Under the pieces are notes generated by a model, which was not told the origin of the DNA, did no database searches, and was given only the letters and a program-made list of their open reading frames with translations. Both the position numbers and the translations under genes were made by a program. Source: a virus. Taken from it: a DNA stretch of 39,012 nucleotides. The stretch lies in the IMG/VR virus record IMGVR_UViG_3300043957_000063, positions 1-39,012 of that record; one strand, written 5' to 3'. Positions 4,435-39,012 of the stretch are shown piece by piece. The stretch's first letter is position 1. Each line of letters opens with the position of its first letter.

Positions 4435-6165
4435 ATGGAATTAACTGATGAGTGCCAGACTGAGGCCATCTCCGAGCGCCCACAGGAACTCATCAGACGG
4501 TTATTCAAGCATCGGCGTGTTGACCCAGTTTCAAACTGCTGGTTCTGGACGGGCGGTCATACGGATAATGGGTATGGACACGTGTATTTAGACAAATCGA
4601 CGGTACTGGTTCACAGACTCAGTTATGAGATTTTCCGTGGAGCTATCCCGGAAGCCCATATCGTTGACCACCGCTGCTTTAACAGACTCTGTTTTAATCC
4701 AAACCATTTACGCTGCATTACGATCGCGGAAAACAACCAACATAGATTCGGCGCATCAAGCAACAATCGGTCATCCGGCGTCAGAAACGTTTACTGGTAT
4801 GGCTATAGGAAGAAATGGTTTGCGGCAATCCACCACAACGGCAAACAAATAAGAAGTGAATATTTCGACGATAAAGAACATGCATGCGAAGAGGCGGTAA
4901 GACTCAGAGCATTGTATTTCAAGGACCAAGGTGATAGCGATATGAAAGCCAAACACAGGAGGCCTCGCGGCACTGGAGCCGTATTTGTCGATTCACAAAA
5001 TCGGTACACATATACGCTCGAGCTACCCAATGACCCTGCGACGGGAAAACGCAGACGTAAAACATTCCGCAGCAAGGATCCGAATAAAGCCAAGGCCAAA
5101 TATCTGGAAGCTCGGAAGAAACTAATATCTACCGGAGTCCTTGCCTCGGATGTAACACCGAAACTGGCAGACTGGCTGGGACGCTGGCTCGAGGAGTTCA
5201 AGCGCCCCAACGTCAAGCCCCGCGTCTGGGAATCGTACCGCTCCGACTGCCGGAACATCACGAACAGCATCGGGGCCGTCCGCATCGGCGATCTCACAGC
5301 GGCGCATGTGCGCAAGCTGGAGAAGGACATCACCTCGACGCGCAGCAGCAAGACCGCGCTCAACGCGTATCGTCGTCTGAGCAACGCCCTCGATGACGCC
5401 GTTGGCGAGGGATTGATAGAGGTTAATCCATGTGCCCATTGCGACCCGCCCAGGGTCGAGGCGAACCCGACGGTGATACTTGATGCGGGCCAGCCCGTCA
5501 GGCTCATACAGGCCGCTTCCAGCGCCTCCGGCGAGGTGAAACGCAGGCGCGGCCAGAACAAGTGGCCGGACAGTCCCGAGGATGACGCGATGTGGAGCCT
5601 CATGTGGCGGCTCGCGTTCGAAACAGGCATGCGCCAGGGGGAGCGGTTCGCACTCACGCCTGCCGACCTTGTGGAGGTCGACGGCACTCCCGCGATCCAC
5701 GTGTGCCACGAGTTGCAGCGCTACGCGAAAGGCGCGGTCATACCCTCATGGCTCAAGGCCGAACCCATCACCAAGGGCATATGGATGGTGCCGCCCAAAT
5801 CGAAGAAGGGCGAACGCATCGTGCCAGTCAGCAAAACCCTCTGGGACGACCTCGCGGGGTGGGCGACCGATCATGAGCTGACCTCCAAGGATCTGATTTT
5901 CACCCGCAAGGGTCAGCCGCTGACCAATACGGTCGAACGACGCCGCTGGTACCGCGCATTGGAGAAGGCCGGACTACCGAGAGTGACGATACGCAGCGCA
6001 CGACACTATTTCGCCACCCAACTCGCCATAGCCGGAGCATCCGAAGACGCCCGCAAAAGCATCATGGGTCACGTCGACATCGGCACCACAGCAGGATATA
6101 CCCATTGGTCACCACAGGCTCTCGCGGAAATCACAGGAAAGACGGCGCTGAGCATCGAACAATAG
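4435..6165 (+). CDS. int: Tyrosine integrase with an in-frame N-terminal HNH_3 + AP2-like module (576-aa ORF; a conventional integrase could start at ATG 4942)
   Basis: HNH pattern: CWFWTGGHTDNGYGHV..LVHRLSYEIFRGAIP..VDHRCFNRLCFNPNHLRCIT..EN. AP2-like segment: SGVRNVYWYGYRKKWFAAIHHNGKQIRSEYFDDKEHACEEAV. Integrase motifs: RGTGAVF, TGMRQGERFAL, ARHYFATQL, IMGHVDIGTTAGYTH. No stop codon separates the modules. Confidence 0.85.
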   Translation: MELTDECQTEAISERPQELIRRLFKHRRVDPVSNCWFWTGGHTDNGYGHVYLDKSTVLVHRLSYEIFRGAIPEAHIVDHRCFNRLCFNPNHLRCITIAENNQHRFGASSNNRSSGVRNVYWYGYRKKWFAAIHHNGKQIRSEYFDDKEHACEEAVRLRALYFKDQGDSDMKAKHRRPRGTGAVFVDSQNRYTYTLELPNDPATGKRRRKTFRSKDPNKAKAKYLEARKKLISTGVLASDVTPKLADWLGRWLEEFKRPNVKPRVWESYRSDCRNITNSIGAVRIGDLTAAHVRKLEKDITSTRSSKTALNAYRRLSNALDDAVGEGLIEVNPCAHCDPPRVEANPTVILDAGQPVRLIQAASSASGEVKRRRGQNKWPDSPEDDAMWSLMWRLAFETGMRQGERFALTPADLVEVDGTPAIHVCHELQRYAKGAVIPSWLKAEPITKGIWMVPPKSKKGERIVPVSKTLWDDLAGWATDHELTSKDLIFTRKGQPLTNTVERRRWYRALEKAGLPRVTIRSARHYFATQLAIAGASEDARKSIMGHVDIGTTAGYTHWSPQALAEITGKTALSIEQ

Positions 6166-7784: not shown

Positions 7785-8045
7785 TCAGTTTCGGTGTATT
7801 CCTCGAACTTCATCTAAGAGTCCGAAAACGTTAGTGTAACCAAGAATGCGAGCCAGTTTATCTAGATCCTCGGTCGTCCATGCATCTAAACCGCGAATCC
7901 GAACAGATATATACGACTGAGACCTGTGCAACTCTCTCGAGACCTGTGTTTGTGAAACGCTTTTCCGCTCCAAGAGCTGAGCAATGGTGTCGGCAATAAG
8001 TTTTGCCGTTGTGCCAATGCTTGGCAGTTCGTTGTTTCTTACCAT
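7785..8045 (-). CDS. CI-like repressor, XRE-family HTH (86 aa)
   Basis: HTH segment SVSQTQVSRELHRSQSYISVRIRG. AAAGGAG RBS. The gene is divergent from a cro-like gene across an operator-containing region. Confidence 0.75.
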   Translation of the reverse strand: MVRNNELPSIGTTAKLIADTIAQLLERKSVSQTQVSRELHRSQSYISVRIRGLDAWTTEDLDKLARILGYTNVFGLLDEVRGIHRN

Positions 8046-18576: not shown

Positions 18577-18647
18577 TCCTCTGTAGCTCAACGGATAGAG
18601 CACGTAATGTTAGTGCGCGCGAGCGGGTTCGACTCCCGCCAGAGGAA
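18577..18647 (+). tRNA. tRNA-Asn(GUU)-like gene with a non-canonical shortened anticodon stem; no encoded CCA
   Basis: Acceptor stem tcctctg/cagagga (7 bp). D-arm gctc-aacggata-gagc. T-arm gcggg-ttcgact-cccgc. Anticodon loop atgttag (GTT). Only 4 clean anticodon-stem pairs (cgta/tgcg, including one G-T), and 71 nt in total. Confidence 0.6.
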
Positions 18648-18893
18648 CAGCGCCACTGTCAATGTCAGCAGTGGCTTGCGTGGAGACAGCTACCACGTAA
18701 TCGCAGAATGACACCGCGGGCAAGCTGAAATGCGGTGCTCCCCGAGAGCGCCCAAGCCTCTGCCCGCACACTCTTGCCTGGTGGTCTTACAACCTTTCAC
18801 CACCAGGCACCACACTTGCTCTGCCATGCCACATCCCAGCACGCCACACGGTGGCAGACATGAGCAGAGCACATTCAACCTAGGAGCTGACAT

Positions 18894-24559: not shown

Positions 24560-25357
24560 ATGAAGCTTAAGGATATGCCGGTATCGTTCCGGACCGACGG
24601 TGACGATCTGGAGGATGGCCAGTTTCTGGTCTACCCCTCGACGTTCACCCGCACCCCTGACTCGTATGGTGACGTCGTAGCAAAGAATGCGTTCGACGAT
24701 ACCATCCAGCAGTGGAAGCAGTCGGGGAACGTGATGCCGATCATGTACGGGCATCGCATGGATGATCCTGATTACAATCTCGGCGGCGCAATCGACATGG
24801 GAACCGATGACCATGGTTGGTGGGTCAAGGGCCAGTTCGACATGGACTCACCCAAGGCTGCGCAGGTGTACAGGCTGGTGAAGGGCAAGCGTCTTTCCCA
24901 ACTATCGTTTGCCTTCGATGTACTGGACGAGGGGACCGTGCAACTTGACGATGGCCAAACAGCCAACGAGTTGAGAAAGCTTCAGGTTTACGAAGCCTCG
25001 TTCGTACCTGTCGGAGCTAACCAGGACACATCGATCGTGGCGGTCAAATCAGCAGCCGACATGCTCACTGCGGAGGTCAAGTCGGGGCGCGTCATCTCCG
25101 CGAAGAATGAAAGCTCGCTGCGTGAATCCGTATCCCAGATCACTGCTGCAGCGGAAAGCCTGAACAATGTCCTGTCCCAGTTGGATGGGGAGAAAACCAA
25201 TCTTGATGTGGATGAAGCCAGCGGTAACGCCGAAGCCAAGACCGAGGAGCCTGAACAGGCCAAGGTCGAGGAGCGGAAAGCCAATCCGTCCGTGGAGGCC
25301 ATGTCGCAGTTAATACACATCTATGAGCAGACAGCTCAGGAAGGAGATTCACTGTGA
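24560..25357 (+). CDS. Prohead protease (HK97 type) with a C-terminal acidic coiled extension
   Basis: Motifs GQFLVYPSTFTRTPDSYGDVVAKNAF, MPIMYGH, LSQLSFAF, YEASFVPVGAN. Confidence 0.85.
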   Translation: MKLKDMPVSFRTDGDDLEDGQFLVYPSTFTRTPDSYGDVVAKNAFDDTIQQWKQSGNVMPIMYGHRMDDPDYNLGGAIDMGTDDHGWWVKGQFDMDSPKAAQVYRLVKGKRLSQLSFAFDVLDEGTVQLDDGQTANELRKLQVYEASFVPVGANQDTSIVAVKSAADMLTAEVKSGRVISAKNESSLRESVSQITAAAESLNNVLSQLDGEKTNLDVDEASGNAEAKTEEPEQAKVEERKANPSVEAMSQLIHIYEQTAQEGDSL

Positions 25358-26595
25358 ATCTCAAGGAGAAACGCGCTGCGGCACTCGCCAAGGCGCAGAA
25401 GTTCAACGAGCGCATCGCCAACGGAGAGGAACTCGGCGAAGACGATGTCACCGCATTGAAGGGCATCCTCGCCGAAGTGAAGGACTTGGACGCACAGCTG
25501 GCTAAGGCTGCGGAGAAGAAGACCCTGCTCGACCAGCTCGGTTCCCTCGGTAAGAAGGAATCCAAGGTCGACAATGAGGCCAAGTCTGGCGTGATCGATG
25601 CCAAGACTCCAGGCGAGTTCTTCATGAAGAGCTTGAAGAACGCTGGTCTGACCGTTCTCGACACGAAGACCCGAGGATTCCAGACCACCGAGTTCAAGGG
25701 CGCAACCGACTTGCATCGCATTGGACAAGAGACAGGCGCTTTCGGCCCGCTGGTCACTGACATTGACAAGAACTTCGTCATGCCATACCAGCGTCCGCTC
25801 CTATTCGCCGACATCCTCGGCTCGGGCACGGTTTCCGGCAACAGCATCAAGTATCCAGTGTTCAAACCGCTCGAGGGGGCCACGGCATTCGTGGCCGAGG
25901 GTGGTGCGAAACCTCAGATCCATCTGGCTGACCCCACATGGGTGACCGATTCGCTTGCCGAGGTCGCGGGATTCTTCAATATCACCGATGACATGGCGGA
26001 GGATGCCGACTATGTGGTGTCCGAAATCAACTCGACCGCACTCTACGACTTGCAGCTGCGCGAGGAACTTGCCTTGCTGTCCGGGGACGGCACCAGCAAC
26101 TCCATCAAGGGCGTGCTCAAACGCGACGGCATCCAGACTGTGGCGAACGTTTCGAAAGGGACGATCAGCGACCCTGATCTGATCTTCAAGGGCATTTCCG
26201 CCGTGCAGGAGGTAACCGGCTTCGCTGCTGATGGCATCGTCATTAACCCAGCCGACTATCAGGCCATTCGTCTGTCCAAGGATTCGAACGGACAGTACTT
26301 TGGTGGCGGTTTCTTCGCTGGCCAGTATGGCAATGGTGAAATCATGCAGAATCCATCGTTGTGGGGGCTTCGCACCGTCGTGTCCGCCAGCATCCCGAAG
26401 GGTACTGTCGCTGTCGGCGCGTTCTCGATCGCCGCGAAGGTGTTCCGCAAGGGTGGTGTGCGCATCGAATCCACTAACTCGCATGGCGATGATTTCACCA
26501 ACGATCAGATCACCGTGCGCCTGCGCGAACGTCTCGGATTGCAGGTCAAGTATCCGGCAGCCATCGCCAAGGTGACTCTTGGCACTACGGCATGA
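25354..26595 (+). CDS. Major capsid protein (HK97 fold) with an N-terminal delta/scaffold domain
   Basis: Coiled N-terminus KEKRAAALAKAQKFNERI.... The call also rests on size and on position after the protease. Confidence 0.85.
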   Translation: MNLKEKRAAALAKAQKFNERIANGEELGEDDVTALKGILAEVKDLDAQLAKAAEKKTLLDQLGSLGKKESKVDNEAKSGVIDAKTPGEFFMKSLKNAGLTVLDTKTRGFQTTEFKGATDLHRIGQETGAFGPLVTDIDKNFVMPYQRPLLFADILGSGTVSGNSIKYPVFKPLEGATAFVAEGGAKPQIHLADPTWVTDSLAEVAGFFNITDDMAEDADYVVSEINSTALYDLQLREELALLSGDGTSNSIKGVLKRDGIQTVANVSKGTISDPDLIFKGISAVQEVTGFAADGIVINPADYQAIRLSKDSNGQYFGGGFFAGQYGNGEIMQNPSLWGLRTVVSASIPKGTVAVGAFSIAAKVFRKGGVRIESTNSHGDDFTNDQITVRLRERLGLQVKYPAAIAKVTLGTTA

Positions 26596-27694: not shown

Positions 27695-27981
27695 TGCCAA
27701 GAGCAGGACAGACGCAAGTGGATTTCAATGACGCGTTCTTCGAATCGATCCTGCGCAGCTCCGGCGTCAAAAGCCTCTGTACGCAGAAAGCCGAAAAGGT
27801 GCTGCAAGCCGCAAAAGCCAGTGCCCCCGTCGATAGCGGAGCATACAGGGACGGCCTGCAACTGCGCACGGTATCCAGAGCGCACCGAGACACCATCATG
27901 GTAGTGGGCACGGACGCGAAAACCATGCTCATCGAATCCAAGACCGGCAACCTCGCCCGCGCATTGAAGGCCGCGAAATGA
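27694..27981 (+). CDS. HK97 gp10-like tail-head joining protein
   Basis: The motif APVDSGAYRDGL resembles the gp10-family D-T/S-G-x-L-R motif. Confidence 0.6.
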   Translation: MPRAGQTQVDFNDAFFESILRSSGVKSLCTQKAEKVLQAAKASAPVDSGAYRDGLQLRTVSRAHRDTIMVVGTDAKTMLIESKTGNLARALKAAK

Positions 27982-28391
27982 CCCTCTACCTGCCACCAGA
28001 CATGGAACTGTTCCTCACCGGATGGCTGCGCTCGCAGATTCCTGATGTGCGTTTCGTCAACAAGGAGCCGGAAGATCTTTCGACTCCACTAGCCAACCCT
28101 GTTGTTGTGATACGTGACGATTCGGGAACCAAGACATCGTATGCGACGTTCGACCGTTCCATTGGGGTGAGCGTGCTCGCCGGGTCGAAGACCAATGACA
28201 AGCCCGCTAATGATCTTGCGAGACTTGTATTTGCATATCTAACGAGCGACGATATCGTATCCGCGCCTGATTCTCCCGTTGCTTCCATCATTGAGGGTGG
28301 CTGCAACGGTCCGTATCCGGTGCAGGATGATCAGGATTACGCACGTCGATATCTGACCGTCGAATATTCGACCATTGGATCCATTCAATAA
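27978..28391 (+). CDS. Tail terminator / tail completion protein
   Basis: Position immediately before the major tail protein. ATGA coupling with the upstream gene. Confidence 0.55.
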   Translation: MTLYLPPDMELFLTGWLRSQIPDVRFVNKEPEDLSTPLANPVVVIRDDSGTKTSYATFDRSIGVSVLAGSKTNDKPANDLARLVFAYLTSDDIVSAPDSPVASIIEGGCNGPYPVQDDQDYARRYLTVEYSTIGSIQ

Positions 28392-28415
28392 ACAATCAGT
28401 ATCTATTTATCATGT

Positions 28416-28439
28416 GCCACCTTTTTGAGGTGGCTTTTT
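28416..28439 (+). terminator. Hairpin plus T-run before the major tail gene
   Basis: Stem gccacct / aggtggc followed by ttttta. Confidence 0.6.
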
Positions 28440-28456
28440 ATATATAAGGAGAAAAC

Positions 28457-29038
28457 ATGACTTCTGACAGCAAGGGCAATGATCTTCAAGCCGTTGACGT
28501 ACCTATCACGGGACAGCTTGCAATAGCGCCCTATGATGCAGCAAACCTCTTGACCTCCGAGCAGGGCGGAGGGAAGACGGTGACGTGGCCGAAAACCAAT
28601 CCGTATGAATGGCTTGGCCTGATCAAGCAGGATGGTGGAGCGACCGAAAGCCAGGACCAGGACGATGCCATCGAGTTCTTCCAGAAGGGCTACTACCTGA
28701 ACCAGGATCCCACCATGACGATCCAATGGGGTTTGGCGGAGTTCAACGCCGCGGTGCGCAAGCTCATCACCGGCCAGACCGCGGACGCGAACGGCATGAT
28801 CGCCGTCGACACGTACACGCCGGACACCAGGTGGGTCCTGTTCTACGAGGAGGTCTACAAGAACGGGAAGATCCGCCGTCTCAACGGCGTCATCCAGGTG
28901 ACCACCACCGAGGTCGACCAGTCCGAGCGAGGCAGTGTAAAGGGCAGGACCGTGACCATGACGTGGCAGCCCGACAAGATCGTGGGCAATGGTTCCACCA
29001 CCAAGTTCAATGAATGGCAGTACGACCCAAAAGCGTGA
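28457..29038 (+). CDS. Major tail protein (frame-0 product, 193 aa)
   Basis: AAGGAG RBS. Position between the tail terminator and the chaperone genes. Predicted beta-rich composition. Confidence 0.75.
   Translation: MTSDSKGNDLQAVDVPITGQLAIAPYDAANLLTSEQGGGKTVTWPKTNPYEWLGLIKQDGGATESQDQDDAIEFFQKGYYLNQDPTMTIQWGLAEFNAAVRKLITGQTADANGMIAVDTYTPDTRWVLFYEEVYKNGKIRRLNGVIQVTTTEVDQSERGSVKGRTVTMTWQPDKIVGNGSTTKFNEWQYDPKA
29026..29032 (+). promoter_or_regulatory. -1 slippery heptamer C_CCA_AAA, 4 nt before the major tail protein stop
   Basis: Frame-0 codons gaC CCA AAA GCG TGA. The -1 frame stays open for 91 further codons. Confidence 0.65.
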
Positions 29039-29304
29039 AGTCGGTAGTGGTAACCGCCTCTGACGGCGGAACTACTCCGACAGTGCAAGTTGGCTCAACA
29101 ATTCAACTGAAGGCCGTTGCAACATTGGCAGACGCTTCGACGATTGATGTCACCGCATCGTCACAGTGGGCATCGAATGCGGTGTCCAAGGCAACTGTTG
29201 ATGGCTCAGGGAAGGTTACCGGCGTTGCTGCGGGGACGACGGAAGTTACCGCTACAAGCGGTGACGTTACATCGTCTGCCGTGACTGTCACAGTATCCGC
29301 CTGA
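29032..29304 (+). CDS. -1 frame extension encoding a Big_2-type Ig-like domain (C-terminal extension of the major tail protein)
   Basis: The sequence KSVVVTASDGGTTPTVQVGSTIQLKAVATLADASTIDVTASSQWASNAVSKATVDGSGKVTGVAAGTTEVTATSGDVTSSAVTVTV is a typical Big_2 pattern. The internal ATG at 29014 has no RBS. Confidence 0.65.
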   Translation, partial: SVKSVVVTASDGGTTPTVQVGSTIQLKAVATLADASTIDVTASSQWASNAVSKATVDGSGKVTGVAAGTTEVTATSGDVTSSAVTVTVSA

Positions 29305-29313
29305 AAGTTATTC

Positions 29314-29357
29314 ATCCCATCCGTGTGGTTCATGCTCTCCATGCGGATGGGATTTTC
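29314..29357 (+). terminator. Terminator-like hairpin after the Ig-like extension
   Basis: 10-bp stem atcccatccg / cggatgggat followed by tttt. Confidence 0.55.
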
Positions 29358-29392
29358 ACAGAAAAAGAGCCTCATCTTAAAGGAGCATAAGA

Positions 29393-29794
29393 ATGGTACA
29401 GAAGAACGATATTCCAGATGATCTCAACTTTGAAGAAGCCACCGAAGAATCATATGAAGCAGGAATCGTCGAAGCTGGCAAGACATTGGAGAACCGCTAT
29501 ATTGTCAGATTCCCTAACCTGTATGTGAAAACTTACGAGGGACATACTTACCGCCTACCGCTGGCAGTGAGGGCTGACTACTTCGATGACGAGGACGGCC
29601 AGGAATCGCCATTAGCGCAGATCAGATCGGTGCTGACGCGCGAGAATCCAACCAAACGTAAATTGATCAACAGTGAAATGTCGGTCACCTTGCTTGCCAT
29701 TGGCGACAGGTATGCGGATGTTATCGCCGACGTGCAGATGGCATCACTGGGAAAATACAAGGCTTCCTCCGCAGTATCGAAGCCGACCGAGTAG
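29393..29794 (+). CDS. Tail assembly chaperone (gpG-like, frame-0 product)
   Basis: Acidic protein located directly upstream of the tape measure gene. AAGGAG RBS. Confidence 0.75.
   Translation: MVQKNDIPDDLNFEEATEESYEAGIVEAGKTLENRYIVRFPNLYVKTYEGHTYRLPLAVRADYFDDEDGQESPLAQIRSVLTRENPTKRKLINSEMSVTLLAIGDRYADVIADVQMASLGKYKASSAVSKPTE
29749..29755 (+). promoter_or_regulatory. -1 slippery heptamer G_GGA_AAA for the G/GT chaperone frameshift
   Basis: Frame-0 codons ctG GGA AAA. The -1 frame is open from 29755 to 30117 and ends with an ATGA overlap on the tape measure start. Confidence 0.75.
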
Positions 29795-30117
29795 AAGCCG
29801 CTGCGGACTTCGCCAGGCTCGGCTGGTCACTGACTGGTGATGTGGGTAGACGGCTGCGTTACGGCGACGCGATGGCGTTGTACGCCTCCCTTATGGCCGA
29901 TCCATCAAGCATGACCGGGGCCAAACATCTCGGATTGGACTATCCGATGAGCTGGGAAGGGTTGTCCGCCGCCTTCCACCAGCGAGGGTATCTGATGCCG
30001 GCACCCCTGCGCATCGGTGAAGAACCGTGGAGTGACCCTGCTGACGATGAGGAATTGGAACAGGCTAAAGCGAAACTCAGCCCGTTCCCCGGAGTGAACG
30101 TTGAGGAGTTGGCATGA
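29755..30117 (+). CDS. gpT-like -1 frame extension of the tail assembly chaperone
   Basis: Continuous -1 reading frame (IQGFLRSIEADRVEAAADFARLGW...). It contains the 29842..30117 ORF from the track. Confidence 0.7.
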   Translation: MQGFLRSIEADRVEAAADFARLGWSLTGDVGRRLRYGDAMALYASLMADPSSMTGAKHLGLDYPMSWEGLSAAFHQRGYLMPAPLRIGEEPWSDPADDEELEQAKAKLSPFPGVNVEELA

Positions 30118-33100
30118 CAGGTGCAGCAGGGGCCGAGGTAGGTTCGGGACACGTTTCAATCTTCCCCGTCATGACAGGGTTCCGGTCGATGGTCTCCAAG
30201 GAGATCCAGGCATCGGGCAAGGAAGGTGGCAGCATCTTCTCTCGCGCCTTCCAAGGCGTCGGGTCGAAGGCGGGATCATCTCTCGGCAAGGATATGAAGA
30301 GCGCGTTCAACGGTTCGGCCGGTGACCTGGCTTCACCCGCTTTGAAGAAGATGCAGTCTGAGGTGGCATCAGCAGCCCGTGCGATGAGCGCAGCGAGACT
30401 CAAGCAGCAGGACGCTGCAGGCAAAGTGCGCGTTGCCGAAGCGCAGTTGGCGGCGGCGATAGCGAAGAACGGTGCCGAATCGGTGCAGGCCGTAGCCGCT
30501 TCCGAGCGTCTTGCCTCGGCGAAACGCAGGGAACAATCCACCTCGGAGGCACTGACGGCGGCCGAAGGTCGCCTCAAGGATGCCAAAAAGGCAGTCTCCG
30601 ATGTCAAACAGGCCACCATAGAAGCACCAAAGACAGGCGTGTTCACCAACGCCATCCAACGTATCCGCAGCAGCGTACAGGGATTGAACCGTGAGAACGT
30701 CGATGCGGTCTCCTCGAAGCTCTCTGGCTTCGGTGTTAAGTGGGGAGTAGTCGCCGGAGTAGCCGGGGCGGCGACACAGCGGATCATGGGATTGTTCTCG
30801 GGCATGATCTCTGGTGCCATGGATGCCTCGGATTCGACGCAAAAGTTTAAGAATACGTTGAACTTTGCAGGAATCGACACCGAGACCATCGGCAAGCTCG
30901 TCGACCAGACCCAGGTCTACGCCGACAGGACCGTCTATAATCTCGGTGACATCCGTTCCGCGACAGCCCAGTTGGCATCCAACGGTGTGAAGGACTACGC
31001 GAATCTAGTGGAGGCCGCTGGCAACCTGAACGCCGTGGCCGGTGGTAATGCGGACACGTTCAAAAGCGTGACGATGGTGCTCACCCAGACCGCAGGAGCG
31101 GGAAAGCTCACCACAGAGAACTGGAACCAGCTTCGTGATGCGATCCCCGGCGCTTCGGGAAAGATCCAGGATGCCTTGAAGAAGAACAAGGCCTTCACCG
31201 GGAACTTCTCCGACGCTTTGGAGAAGGGCCAGGTCAGCGCCGACGAGTTCAACCAGGCGCTCATGGATCTTGGCATGACCGACATTGCGAAGAAGGCGGC
31301 GGCCGACAGCAGCACATTCGAAGGTGCGATGGGCAACTGGGAGGCTGCTGTCGAGAAGTTCGGCAGCACGTTCCTGGACACGATGAAACCCCAATTGACA
31401 GGGGCCATCAATTTCGCTTCAGACAAGCTCGGTAACTTCACCAACTGGTTCAAAAGAACGTGGGATTCGGTCTCTGGACTCATTGAGAAGAAGGACTTCA
31501 AAGGCGCGTTCAAGAAGGCCTTCAACGTCGACGACTCCACCATGCGCCGGTTGGAGGAATCATTCTCAGGCATCCATGAGGGATTGAACACCATCGGTGA
31601 CGCGTTAAGCCCGCTCAAATCCAAGGTGACCGGTGCCGGCAGCTCGTTCCCCACGTTGAACCGGGGGCTGAACGGGTTCGCGCAGGCATTGGACACCGTG
31701 CAGCCCGTGCTCCCGGCCATCGCGAAACTGCTCGACCTGTTCGGTGAACTCCCTACGGGAGTGCAGTCCGCCGTGCTCGGTTTCGCTCTGTTCGGCAGGC
31801 AGGCCAGCATGGTGCTCTCACCGATCGGCATGGTGGTGAAAGCCTCGGCTGGATTGGTGAAGGGCATCGGATCCGTAGGCAGCGCCATCGGTGGCCTGGT
31901 GTCGGGCAGACTCTCGAAATCCAGTTCCATAACGTCCATAGCCGAATCATTGGAGGATGCGGGCAGCAATGCCTCAGGCGCAGCTCCGAAGATCAGCAAT
32001 GCGGCCAAGAGCGTGGAAACCCTTGACACTAAAGCAGCCGGAGCGGTCAAGAAAACAGGTGGACTGTCATCCGCATTAGGGGGCATCAGTCCCGCAAGCG
32101 TAGCCTTTGGCGCAGCCGCACTCGGCGTCACGGCTTATACCGCCACAATGAGCGACCAAATGCAGAAAACCCAGAATATGGTCGATGACTTCTCCGCGGC
32201 AATGAAAGAAGGAGCAGATAGTGTAAGTAGCTTCTGGTCGAAGATGCAATCCGGACAGTCTGGCGACCTTGGCATCATCGATAAACTGAGCTCACTGGGT
32301 AAAGACAGTAACTTATCCTCACTGGTCAAAGACACGGGGACCAGCTGGTCAACCGTCAAGGATGCGATAACCGGCACCGGTGATGCCATGTCTCAACTGG
32401 ATAAGGCAGCCGGTTCGGGAATAACCTTCAACGGCACATACAAGGCGAAAATGCAGAGCCTTCGCGATGTGGTGAACGATCTGAAAGGTTCCTACCAGGA
32501 CACTATCAAGGAGATGATCGAATATTCGCAGACCCAGAACGCGATTAATAACGGTACCAGCGCTGTCCAATCCGCTTTCAGCCAACTCTCTACCACGCTG
32601 AAAGCCAACGGCGACGATCTGGCGAACAACGGACAGTTGACAGCCGCTTCACAGCAAGCAGTGAGTTCAGCTACCGATGCATTGTGGCAGAATGTGCAAG
32701 CTCAACTGGAGTATGGGAAAACCAGCGGGGATATGTCCACCGCCATCCAAGGCGCTAAAAACAGTGTCCAACAGATGCGAGACTCACTGATCGCCACTCT
32801 GGAACAGCAGGGAATGAGTTCTCAAGCAGCTGCACAGTACGCGGACTCTCTCGGCCTGATACCGGCAAATGTGAACACCACCTTCACAGAGAATTCCACA
32901 CTGACCAAAGGCGAGGTGGAAGCCTACCTCAATACCTTGGGATTGACTCCAGCACAGAAAAGCACCGTGATGAACGCATTGACCAACCAGGCCAATGGGG
33001 ACATCAACAACTTGCATCTGAACATGAACAGTTTGCCAGGAAAAGTACAGACCCTGCTAACCGCTGACAATACGGATGCCCAGAAGAAAACAGCTGAAGC

Positions 33101-36730: not shown

Positions 36731-38788
36731 TTGGCTTTTCACCCGGATATCACACGCAGGGACGATGTGTCGGTGGCGTTGGATGCGGCGAACGCCGCGG
36801 TCAGGCTCGCCTCCCGTCAGATGACCGGCAACGCCGGCAGTGTAACCATACCCAACGCCGACGGCACCAAGACCGTGATGGGCGTGGACGCCGGGGATGC
36901 CGGTGTAGCGCCCTGGGTGGGGGACACCACCGCGCCGGGAACCCCGACAGGCGTCAGCGCACAGAGCGGCAGCGGCATGATCGTCGTCTCCTGGGACGGG
37001 ACTCTCGATGGTGGGGTCCCACCGGATTTTCACCATGTCGCACTGTTGGTCGATGGCGTCGAATCGGGCAGGCTCGCCGCGAAGGGCAGCGTCGTGTTCG
37101 GCCCATACGACAGCGGTGCCACTCATCTGGTGAGTGCCGTCGCCTATGATGACGCTCACGGTGAGGACGGGTCGAGCAGGCCCAACGCGTCGGCTCCATC
37201 GGATTCGATCACGGTTAAGGTCGCCGGTTCGGACATCGACCCCGACAGGCTCGGCATAGCCATCACGAAAGCCATCACAGACCCTTCCGGGAACGGCGTG
37301 AACAATGGCGACCTGTGGCTCAAGTACGACCGCGACCCGGATTCCAGCGGAGCAGCCCTCGTGGGCGAATGGTGGTGGGACGAGCGTGCGTGGGTTGAGA
37401 TACCGGTAAACATCTATCTCGACCAACTGGCCTCTAGGGGGATAAACGCCGACAGCGCGGTAATCGGCCTGATTGCGGCTGGCATCATCACAGGCGGCTT
37501 GTTCCAGACTTCAGCAGACAACCCGCGCTCCTATTTTGACACGCAGGGATTCCACACCACCGACGCCGACGGGAACTTGACGTTTAATACCTCGAACGGC
37601 GTGGTGAATATGATCAACGCGATCGCTAAAAACATGACCGTTACCGAACTCAACGCCGTGGGTGGGTCAATGTCGCTGACCCCTGCCGAGACACCATCGT
37701 CAACGACGATCTACAGTCAGACCTTTGAGGACTCAGCGGGTATCGAGGGCTGGCGTTCAGTGGGCGAGGCGCAGTTTACGATTTCCACGGAACAACACCA
37801 TTCGGGGAGCTCGTCACTGAAGGTGCCATCGTCGGCAATATGGGCGTCCCTGTCCCTGAGGGACGTCATACCTGCCGATCGTCTCCTGCCGGGAGCCACC
37901 TATACGTTCGATTACTGGGTATATTTCCCCACCCCATCAACCACCAGCATCGACACGTTCAACTGGGCCGACGGCATCGGGGCCAGCGACCTCAACCCCA
38001 GCCGGACGGTAGGGTGGAATCACGTAACCTACACGGCCAAGATCCCCTATGGCAAGGCGATGGGAACATCAAGCATCTTCCCCTATATGCTGGTCAACCC
38101 GCCTTTCGATTCGAGCACCCAGAAGATCCTTGACTGCTATATCGACGATTTGACCATCACTCGCACGCCGTTCGGCGCGGGCGCATACTTCGGCCTCAAC
38201 GACAATGGGTATCCGGCCCTGGAAATGTACGGGGACGATGGCGACACCCTCATAAGCATCAAAGCCTCGGATAGCGGCAGCACCGGTGGCAAGGTGGTGT
38301 TCGCCACGAAAAACGGCGTGTTCCTTGGTACCGAGGCGCAACAGCCTCAGATAAACATCACGGACGAAACGGTGGGGATTTCCTCGTCCAACCGGGTTGA
38401 CATCACCGCCGTCAATGATGGCGTGTATATCAACAGCAGGAAAATGAGCGACTCGGGATGGGTAGACCTGTCATCCTATCTAGCCAGCGGAGTCAAGGGG
38501 ACCTTTAAGGGTCGAGTGATCGATGGAGTCGCGTATCTGGCACTTCTGTGTCAAGGTTTCAATGTCTCAAGCATGAGTACCGTACAACTCGCCAACGGTA
38601 TTCCATCGTCATGGCTGCCCAAAAACGATTTCCCGACGAACGCCATCATTGGATCATCCGGCTACTTTTCGGGAATAGTGTCGTTGTATCTGGATGGATC
38701 CGATAGAGGAAGTATCAGATTCCAAAATCTAGAAAAAGACAACGCATGGATTTGTCGCAGTACACTCACCCCATATGCACTCGGATAG
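36731..38788 (+). CDS. Tail fibre / receptor-binding protein with an FN3-like region and a CBM-like C-terminal region
   Basis: TTG start 6 nt after AAGGAG. FN3-like segment APGTPTGVSAQSGSGMIVVSWDG. The later segment TIYSQTFEDSAGIEGWRSVGEAQFTISTEQHHSGSSSLKV...YTFDYWVYF resembles carbohydrate-binding modules. Confidence 0.7.
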   Translation: MAFHPDITRRDDVSVALDAANAAVRLASRQMTGNAGSVTIPNADGTKTVMGVDAGDAGVAPWVGDTTAPGTPTGVSAQSGSGMIVVSWDGTLDGGVPPDFHHVALLVDGVESGRLAAKGSVVFGPYDSGATHLVSAVAYDDAHGEDGSSRPNASAPSDSITVKVAGSDIDPDRLGIAITKAITDPSGNGVNNGDLWLKYDRDPDSSGAALVGEWWWDERAWVEIPVNIYLDQLASRGINADSAVIGLIAAGIITGGLFQTSADNPRSYFDTQGFHTTDADGNLTFNTSNGVVNMINAIAKNMTVTELNAVGGSMSLTPAETPSSTTIYSQTFEDSAGIEGWRSVGEAQFTISTEQHHSGSSSLKVPSSAIWASLSLRDVIPADRLLPGATYTFDYWVYFPTPSTTSIDTFNWADGIGASDLNPSRTVGWNHVTYTAKIPYGKAMGTSSIFPYMLVNPPFDSSTQKILDCYIDDLTITRTPFGAGAYFGLNDNGYPALEMYGDDGDTLISIKASDSGSTGGKVVFATKNGVFLGTEAQQPQINITDETVGISSSNRVDITAVNDGVYINSRKMSDSGWVDLSSYLASGVKGTFKGRVIDGVAYLALLCQGFNVSSMSTVQLANGIPSSWLPKNDFPTNAIIGSSGYFSGIVSLYLDGSDRGSIRFQNLEKDNAWICRSTLTPYALG

Positions 38789-38803: not shown

Positions 38804-39012
38804 ATGGATTACATCAGCACCACAGCAATCGGCTGGCTGATCACGACTGCACTTGGAGGTCTCGTGGGGTTCCTCGCCTCGTTCATGCGCAAATCCGCTA
38901 ACAGAGACAAAGCCCTCACTCAGGGGATGCGTGTCCTGTTGCGTGCCCGACTGATCGACATCCACGAGAAGTATGTGGAGCACGACGAGCTGTGCCCCGT
39001 GAACGTGAAGGA
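38804..39012 (+). CDS. 5-prime part of the wrap-around lysis-cassette membrane protein (continues at 128..251)
   Basis: ATG at 38804. The reading frame continues through the terminal overlap. Confidence 0.6.
   Translation, partial: MDYISTTAIGWLITTALGGLVGFLASFMRKSANRDKALTQGMRVLLRARLIDIHEKYVEHDELCPVNVK
38886..39012. repeat. Terminal overlap copy 2, identical to 1-127
   Basis: Direct comparison of the two window ends. Confidence 0.95.

Follow-up and report, generated by a model that had tools for sequence, protein, structure and literature searches.

The major tail protein gene and its overlapping -1 frame

We analysed a stretch of 39,012 nucleotides, the IMG/VR virus record IMGVR_UViG_3300043957_000063 from position 1 to position 39,012, hereafter called the window. 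It is the nearly complete genome of a temperate siphophage with a Bifidobacterium-type host. The analyses focused on the gene of the major tail protein (MTP) and on an open reading frame (ORF) for an immunoglobulin (Ig)-like domain that overlaps the end of this gene in the -1 frame. As argued below, a programmed -1 ribosomal frameshift very probably joins the two into an MTP-Big_2 fusion. The features of the locus are collected in Table 1.

The zero-frame product matches the PHROG family phrog_10909, 'major tail protein', with an E value of 2.3e-49. Its gene is located between the tail terminator gene and the genes for the tail assembly chaperone and the tape measure protein. No Pfam family was matched by the tube domain, and the assignment is based on the PHROG profiles and the predicted fold. 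The PHROG match, the predicted fold and the position of the gene identify its product as a siphophage major tail (tube) protein.

The last codons of the MTP gene are TAC GAC CCA AAA GCG TGA. They contain a heptamer of the X_XXY_YYZ type whose first C is the third base of the GAC codon. The initial annotation had placed this heptamer in the correct phase, which holds, and four nucleotides before the stop codon; the actual distance is three nucleotides, corresponding to the GCG codon. The -1 frame, reading CCC AAA AGC GTG AAG, is open as had been claimed, over 92 codons from CCC to a TGA stop at 29302-29304, and the open stretch as a whole spans 29014-29304. A shift at the heptamer would thus add 90 new residues after Lys192, with a predicted junction NEWQYDPK-SVKSVVV. 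The predicted products are proteins of 193 residues (21.43 kDa) and 282 residues (29.88 kDa). Digestion with Asp-N is predicted to yield the junction peptide DPKSVKSVVVTAS from the fusion and DPKA from the short form, while trypsin would cut at the junction lysine.

The window contains CCCAAAAGCGTRR a single time, and a search of dinucleotide shuffles that tolerated one mismatch gave a mean of 0.17 matches. The sole other CCCAAAA of the window, at position 38618, does not have the slippery phase in its ORF. The signal is present on the tail gene only, and the capsid gene of the window does not have it. We also considered a +1 shift at a 'shifty stop' of the CCC-stop type. It was ruled out, as the +1 frame is open for just 8 codons past the stop and the codon preceding the stop is GCG, not CCC.

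Table 1. Features of the MTP locus and of neighbouring structural genes in the window
Feature	Position	Strand	Remarks
Major head protein gene	25354-26595	+	
Shine-Dalgarno sequence of the MTP gene	28446..28451	+	AAGGAG; anti-Shine-Dalgarno duplex -8.2 kcal/mol
MTP (tube) gene, zero frame	28457..29038	+	193 residues, ending ...EWQYDPKA; TGA stop at 29036-29038; from the ORF list
Slippery heptamer	29026..29032	+	C_CCA_AAA, in X_XXY_YYZ phase
Spacer, 7 nucleotides	29033..29039	+	GCG TGA A; holds the zero-frame stop one codon past the slip site
-1 frame extension, Big_2 Ig-like domain	29032..29304	+	SVKSVVV...TVTVSA and stop; base 29032 read twice
Predicted stimulatory stem-loop	29040..29081	+	16 base pairs in three stacked helices; GUCGG.AGUGGU..CCGCC-UCUGAC-GGCGG.ACUACUCCGAC
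Hairpin after the extension	29314..29357	+	Terminator-like or mRNA-stabilising
Tail assembly chaperone gene pair	29393-30117		Canonical G/GT arrangement; 133-residue gene, phrog_18582

Predicted structure of the fusion protein

The -1 frame had been predicted to encode a Big_2-type Ig-like domain, and a hidden Markov model search bore this out. The extension matches the Pfam family Big_2 (PF02368) with 42.1 bits, against a gathering score of 22.8, and an E value of 8.6e-11. It also matches PHROG families of Ig domains. We modelled the 282-residue fusion with AlphaFold2 using the family alignment as input, which gave a mean predicted local distance difference test (pLDDT) score of 78.9. The N-terminal domain is β-rich in the model, with one disordered loop (residues 58-84), and the C-terminal domain (residues ~195-282) is all-β with pLDDT values of ~85-95.

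A Foldseek search against the PDB returned as the best full-length match of the fusion a chain of the connector complex of Mycobacteriophage Douge (8zdj_S, E value 3e-14, TM score 0.51), followed by lambda gpV (7t4f_A, E value 6e-7) and then by T5 pb6. The C-terminal domain matched LigA and LigB (LigB 2mog, TMt 0.74), intimin and the Big_2-CBM56 structure 7r3t. Based on the matches of both domains, the modelled fusion has the architecture of lambda gpV, i.e. a tube domain followed by a C-terminal Big_2 domain.

Conservation of the slippery site among related tail proteins

A homology search with the 193-residue MTP identified only proteins of Bifidobacterium and of metagenomes. Nine of these homologues are 275-287 residues long and carry an Ig-like domain in frame, mostly Big_2 but TIG in P0016, and four are 191-193 residues long. 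Using the family alignment, we then scanned IMG/VR and collected 80 loci. Of 81 related MTP loci, 31 have the identical heptamer, and these belong to three clades; a fourth clade (L170/L202) came from a pattern scan. The 13-nucleotide sequence CCCAAAAGCGTGA ends the MTP genes of all 20 loci of the window's clade, which share 89.6-96% MTP identity. It is also found at the end of the gene in L024 (64% MTP identity) and in the ten loci L073-L082 (38% identity). The -1 ORFs of these loci extend 88-92 codons past the stop, except for 52 codons in L011, where the locus itself ends. Counted from the CCC of the heptamer they code for 92-96 residues, and they start with PKSV(K/T).

This 13-nucleotide core is 100% identical across the four MTP clades (those of the window, L024, L073 and L170), including an invariant GCGTGA. 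Between clades, the identity is 32-63% in the flanking 60-nucleotide stretches, 36-65% for the MTPs and 43-48% for the extensions. Such a short block of fully identical nucleotides, coinciding with a phased slippery site and surrounded by diverged coding sequence, is a classic signature of functional recoding, as judged by comparison, and it excludes an assembly error. Furthermore, the window's clade is represented in at least 15 metagenome datasets by 13 haplotypes, a recurrence that excludes a sequencing error.

The closest sister phages provide a natural control. In L020 and L021 (88.6% MTP identity), tail tube and Ig-like domains are encoded as a single in-frame protein of 282 residues. 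The DNA at their junction, TAC GAC CCC AAG AGC GTG AAG, has one extra base, and the heptamer is destroyed. The resulting peptide, YDPKSVKSV, is the same as the transframe junction predicted for the window, and the length of the protein is the same as well. By sequence comparison, evolution has given L020 and L021 an in-frame counterpart of the transframe product proposed for the window. In P0013 and P0011 (contigs L324 and L326; 65-68% MTP identity), two further relatives, there is no Ig ORF, and the chaperone gene starts 80-90 nucleotides past the MTP stop. The comparison thus points to three states in this MTP family, namely no Ig-like domain, an in-frame Ig-like domain and a frameshift-dependent Ig-like domain, and the Ig-like domain is evidently an accessory decoration.

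To the sequence comparison we added an analysis of polymorphism among the 13 haplotypes of the window's clade. For the extension, we obtained a ratio of non-synonymous to synonymous polymorphism (pN/pS) of 0.18 in the -1 frame, compared with 1.39 and 1.50 in the two remaining frames. The low value in the -1 frame only indicates purifying selection, and the extension is therefore not a decaying remnant. The corresponding value for the MTP, 0.30, was not used, as a codon deletion in one haplotype makes it too high.

These data bear on two other explanations of the locus. According to the first, the window carries a broken in-frame fusion, caused by a one-base deletion or by an assembly error in the A run, and the Ig ORF is an untranslated remnant in decay. 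The in-frame fusions of L020, L021 and many other homologues, which in the close relatives differ by one base at the junction, are in line with this explanation, as is the fact that some relatives do without the Ig-like domain and so tolerate its loss. However, the arrangement recurs across the haplotypes and datasets of the window's clade and in three further clades of just 36-65% MTP identity, always with an identical core and an intact -1 ORF of 88-94 codons, selection acts in the -1 frame only, and a remnant would not retain a phased heptamer with a hairpin at a 7-nucleotide spacing. We therefore regard a broken fusion as very unlikely.

According to the second, the Ig-like domain is made as a free protein of 96 residues from the ATG at 29014 or from another internal start, and either attaches to the tail non-covalently or serves some unrelated function. 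An ATG in the -1 frame is indeed present 12 nucleotides upstream of the heptamer. Nevertheless, it arises incidentally from GAA TGG, the codons of an invariant Glu-Trp pair in the MTP, and it is missing in the L073 clade, where the sequence reads GAA AGC TGG. The domain is also covalently fused in frame in the sister phages. The absence of a ribosome-binding site at this ATG, which the initial annotation had noted, was confirmed by the calculated anti-Shine-Dalgarno duplex, with 0.0 kcal/mol compared with -8 to -11 kcal/mol for the starts of the MTP, chaperone, tape measure, capsid and portal genes. Synthesis of a free Ig-like protein thus appears most improbable.

In a more distant MTP homologue, L072, and also in L026, we observed an in-phase C_CCG_GGC heptamer 25 nucleotides before the stop, with an open -1 frame of 94 codons. 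It could represent a slip site of another kind, or the -1 frame may simply be open over this length by virtue of the high GC content.

RNA structures downstream of the heptamer and around the gene

The predicted stem-loop starts 7 nucleotides past the heptamer, within the distance of ~5-9 nucleotides expected for a stimulatory structure. The 66-nucleotide stretch folds to -26.3 kcal/mol (z = -4.0), and the members of the window's clade give values of -26 to -37 kcal/mol (z of -2.4 to -6.8). Compensatory changes are found within this clade (AGUGGU/ACUACU, GCGGU/ACCGC and GCAGU/ACUGC), and they include non-synonymous ones on both strands. The L170/L202 clade has a hairpin of equal length and register with different inner helices. 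Adding these two loci to the alignment gave four compensatory pairs with 94% of the cells paired, and none of 500 shuffles reached the covariation score; slid controls of the same alignment all collapsed. The hairpins of L024 and L073 differ and cannot be aligned column by column, and they were left out of this pooling; in L073, two hairpins follow the heptamer. In the equivalent stretch of the in-frame relative L020, the structure is lost (-16.5 kcal/mol, z = -0.4). This is expected, because the structure would be needed only where frameshifting is needed. No Rfam family was matched in the region 28800-29900.

A hairpin past the end of the extension had been described as terminator-like, and it proved to be a genuine feature of the predicted RNA. 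It consists of a 15-base-pair stem (29314-29353) with a 10-nucleotide loop, is followed by UUUU up to position 29357, and has a predicted stability of -27 to -29 kcal/mol (z = -3.3). A consensus terminator scan did not call it, because its U tract is short and its loop has 10 nucleotides. Another terminator-like hairpin, GCCACCTTTTTGAGGTGGC followed by TTTTT, is present at 28416-28434, between the tail terminator and MTP genes. The two hairpins bracket the MTP-Ig gene and may serve the separate processing or the stabilisation of the transcript of this highly expressed gene.

The hairpins on both sides of the gene could be taken to indicate that the conserved signal is mainly regulatory, acting in ribosome pausing, mRNA stability or downstream coupling, with the -1 product as an irrelevant by-product. 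That relatives can dispense with the Ig-like domain would fit this explanation. On the other side, the -1 frame protein is under purifying selection and keeps a recognisable Big_2 fold, and in-frame equivalents exist. Each of these features shows that the protein product itself is selected, and a mainly regulatory role of the signal is hardly credible. Slippage of the RNA polymerase, which by adding one A to the A4 run would generate an in-frame mRNA with the same DPKSVK junction, has equally little probability, as this run, although present, is far shorter than the runs of ~7-9 or more generally known to support productive slippage, and the invariant CCC, the fixed phase and the structure 7 nucleotides downstream are features of tandem tRNA slippage rather than of slippage by the polymerase.

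Proposed frameshift mechanism

In the mechanism that we propose, most ribosomes would read GAC CCA AAA GCG, stop at the TGA codon and release the 193-residue tube subunit. Some ribosomes would pause over the stem-loop 7 nucleotides downstream while CCA in the P site is paired with tRNA-Pro and AAA in the A site with tRNA-Lys. The two tRNAs would then slip back by one base, to CCC and AAA, and translation would go on in the -1 frame (AGC GTG AAG ...) for 90 more codons. The outcome would be a 282-residue subunit that has the same tube domain and, in addition, the C-terminal Big_2 Ig-like domain. Once the longer subunit is incorporated into the hexameric rings of the tube, its Ig-like domain would project from the tail surface, and the decoration of the tail would be sub-stoichiometric. 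That slippage takes place in this phage, and with what efficiency, we infer from the sequence. As for the function of the Ig-like domain, an adhesive role by weak binding to surface carbohydrate or mucin is suggested by analogy, from the general hypothesis for phage Ig-like domains.

Several observations weigh against a -1 frameshift at 29026-29032, or against details of it. The efficiency of frameshifting could be very low, and A_AAA is generally regarded as less shifty than A_AAG in Escherichia coli. As some relatives have no Ig-like domain, the domain is dispensable for tail assembly. The covariation of the stem-loop within the window's clade alone is not significant (seven distinct sequences with two compensatory pairs, and 62 of 500 shuffles as good), and part of the conservation of the helices is due to protein constraint, because they are located in coding sequence. 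The hairpin of L024, at the same 7-nucleotide spacing, is different and modest (z = -0.6), and simple folds of the two corresponding sites of Lactobacillus casei phage A2, described below, are weak (z = -0.5 and -0.8). Because of these weak folds, the stimulator may be something other than a plain hairpin.

On balance, the comparative data strongly support the frameshift reading, which combines a phased heptamer, an open and selected -1 ORF, an invariant signal, a natural in-frame control, a hairpin at 7 nucleotides, the lack of an internal ribosome-binding site and the precedent of phage A2. We thus consider it very probable that a -1 frameshift at this heptamer makes the MTP-Big_2 fusion.

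Comparison with known recoded virion proteins

The addition of Ig-like domains to phage proteins by frameshifting was reportedly described by Fraser et al. in 2006. For phage A2, the primary work cited in PMC5009743 and PMC7260188 is that of Garcia et al. (2004, J Bacteriol 186:1714) and of Rodriguez et al. (2005, J Bacteriol 187:8201). The initial annotation had called such an addition an established phenomenon, and the literature agrees for head and tail proteins of A2, T3, SPP1 and Listeria phages (PMC5009743, PMC8718954). Frameshifting of the -1 type is cited for both the head and tail proteins of A2 (PMC5009743, PMC7260188).

The A2 genome (NC_004112, locus L083 of our set) has the closest known counterpart of the window's signal. 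Its major head gene, orf5, ends with ACC CCA AAA GCG TAA (CCCAAAAGCGTAA), and its major tail gene, orf10, ends with GCC CCA AAA GCG TAG (CCCAAAAGCGTAG), with the signals at positions 5568-5580 and 7927-7939, respectively. Both -1 extensions start with PKSV and contain a Big_2 domain, with Pfam E values of 3.5e-7 for orf5 and 1.6e-17 for orf10. The eleven bases CCCAAAAGCGT are identical in A2 and the window, and the stop codon occupies the same position, being TAA or TAG in A2 and TGA in the window. In both phages the site lies in the last codons of a gene for a major virion protein, which for one of the A2 genes is the MTP, and the payload is a Big_2 domain of ~85-90 residues. However, A2 is a phage of Firmicutes and the window is an Actinomycetota-type phage of 55-58% G+C, and the MTP family of the window, phrog_10909, is unrelated in sequence to that of A2. 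Furthermore, A2 has the signal on both head and tail genes in contrast with the single site of the window, and simple folding of the A2 sites gives far less stable structures than the hairpin predicted for the window. Frameshifting has been reported for A2, whereas the case of the window is known from sequence. By this comparison, the window represents a new host phylum and an unrelated MTP family for an A2-type signal.

Lambda gpV, whose Big_2 domain has been described (PMC8718954), resembles the predicted fusion in its succession of a tube domain and a C-terminal Big_2 domain. The domain of gpV is encoded in frame and every subunit carries it, in contrast with the window, where it would reach only a fraction of the subunits. 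In SPP1, the two tail tube proteins gp17.1 and gp17.1* are present in a 3:1 ratio, and the extension is non-essential (PMC8718954). Further extensions of tail proteins are those of the lactococcal 936-group phages (MTP-TpeX) and of the Listeria phages PSA, A118 and A500 (PMC4759559, PMC5009743). The systems of SPP1, the 936 group and the Listeria phages resemble the case proposed here, in that one gene gives two tube isoforms, the longer of which has an Ig-fold or carbohydrate-binding decoration. Nevertheless, they use +1 shifts at CCC.UAA or CCC.UAG, in contrast with the window, whose extension is in the -1 frame behind a heptamer for tandem slippage.

The tail assembly chaperone genes provide another parallel. 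For lambda, a -1 frameshift at G_GGA_AAG that yields the G and GT proteins was reportedly described by Xu, Hendrix and Duda in 2004. Like the MTP site of the window, it is a tandem-slippage site with an X_XXA_AAZ heptamer in a tail gene. Unlike the product of the MTP site, the G/GT chaperone product is absent from virions, and what its extension binds, while the tail is being assembled, is the MTP. The chaperone gene of the window itself harbours an in-phase G_GGA_AAA heptamer at 29749-29755, where the -1 frame is open over positions 29677-30117. Our phage thus appears to have two X_XXA_AAA sites for -1 frameshifting in adjacent tail genes, and the site of the chaperone gene indicates that such a sequence is evidently usable in this host.

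We found no description of a CCCAAAA or 'CCA AAA' phage signal, nor of a tail frameshift in a Bifidobacterium phage, in the open-access literature; subscription journals may differ on the generality of the signal.

Occurrence of the signal in other virion protein genes

To see how widely the signal occurs, we scanned IMG/VR with two patterns, ACCCAAAAGCGTGA and CCCCAAAAGCGTAG; the figures given here cover the 120 stretches listed for each scan. The full arrangement, in which a long zero-frame ORF ending with PKA and a stop is followed by a -1 ORF of at least 60 codons starting with PKSV, was found in at least 49 stretches per scan. Nine representative upstream proteins belong to six PHROG major-head families (422, 840, 267, 10, 544 and 29) and to the major-tail family 88. 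Taken together, the signal was encountered behind at least six PHROG families of head proteins and three of tail proteins. The IMG/VR contigs that contain CCCAAAAGCGT and a stop codon (loci L204-L323) have G+C contents of 36-54%. Over all loci, we counted at least 61 distinct junctions, and the upstream proteins form 23 clusters that are unrelated by BLAST; a few of these clusters, in high-GC contigs, are probably chance matches. The majority of the extensions (42 of 61) group into one Big_2-like cluster. The 60 nucleotides past the heptamer are more stably folded than random windows of the same loci, with a median z of -2.1.

Other payloads were found as well. In L110, L114, L122, L125 and L147, and also in L318, the same 13-nucleotide signal ends genes for protease-major capsid fusions of ~612-658 residues with a C-terminal PKA. 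Their -1 extensions have 138-144 codons and match no Pfam family; they may represent a new capsid decoration domain. The head genes of L211, L214, L237, L260 and L275 have extensions of 60-78 residues that are not Ig-like and end with a weak HeH/LEM-like motif (...TVAQITAWLDAHNISHTG..KADLLALV). The HeH match of these extensions has a Pfam E value of ~1e-3, below the gathering score.

We tentatively suggest, with somewhat less than even confidence, that the signal is the 5' edge of a portable recoding cassette that has been grafted onto unrelated head and tail genes in phages of Firmicutes and Actinomycetota. The cassette appears to combine C_CCA_AAA GCG and a stop codon with the linker PKSV(A)P, with a hairpin downstream and with a small surface domain, which is usually Big_2 and sometimes HeH-like. 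Alternatively, many lineages may have converged repeatedly on one optimal signal. A differing suggestion has been published, according to which the domains first insert out of frame by accident, with selection for frameshifting coming later (PMC5009743).

Genomic context and relatives of the phage

The G+C content of the window is about 55-60%. The early and structural genes on the + strand code for an endolysin, an integrase, an anti-repressor, RecT, replication proteins, the large terminase, the portal and a protease. The gene of the major head protein is followed by those of a head-tail adaptor, a head closure protein, a neck protein and the tail terminator. On the 3' side of the MTP gene, the tail assembly chaperone, a tape measure protein of 1188 residues and minor tail proteins are encoded.

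The 576-residue integrase ORF (4435-6165) has an unusual N-terminal fusion. Its residues ~10-165 match PHROG families of HNH endonucleases, and residues 187-566 match the tyrosine-type integrases of phrog_1. A tRNA-Asn (GTT) gene (18577-18648) is located midway through the region of early and replication genes.

A blastn search of the region 27900-30200 against isolated phages revealed just ~70-90 nucleotides of similarity, in the neck gene, and thus no close cultured relative. With the fusion as the query, tblastn detected only distant MTPs of actinophages (Rathayibacter phage NCPPB3778, Microbacterium phage Min1, Propionibacterium phage Anatole and Arthrobacter phage RootBeer). A scan of genome contigs identified only two distant Leucobacter prophages, both without the frameshift signal.

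Significance for phage annotation and biology

In public databases, the short form of the MTP is annotated as 'hypothetical protein' and the Ig ORF is unannotated; a label exists only for the in-frame fusions. A correct annotation would treat the MTP and Ig-like coding sequences as a single gene with ribosomal slippage, and the same applies to dozens of contigs of Bifidobacterium-type phages from gut and dairy sources. A single instance such as this one is ordinary phage biology. What makes it valuable is the corrected annotation, the series of three states and the clue to a recoding cassette of wide occurrence.

The sequence CCCAAAAGCGT followed by a stop codon is a cheap and specific search key for recoded head and tail genes in viral metagenomes. 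If the cassette proposal is true, the frameshift signal would travel with the domain and provide a ready-made, sub-stoichiometric decoration for any abundant virion protein. Convergence of many lineages on one optimal signal would be of interest in its own right.

The three states found within one MTP family form a natural series for addressing why partial decoration is selected. Phage tails decorated with Ig-like domains may adhere weakly to mucin or to the polysaccharide of cell walls. The phages of bifidobacteria live in a mucosal habitat, and such adhesion could affect the rates at which they encounter their hosts.

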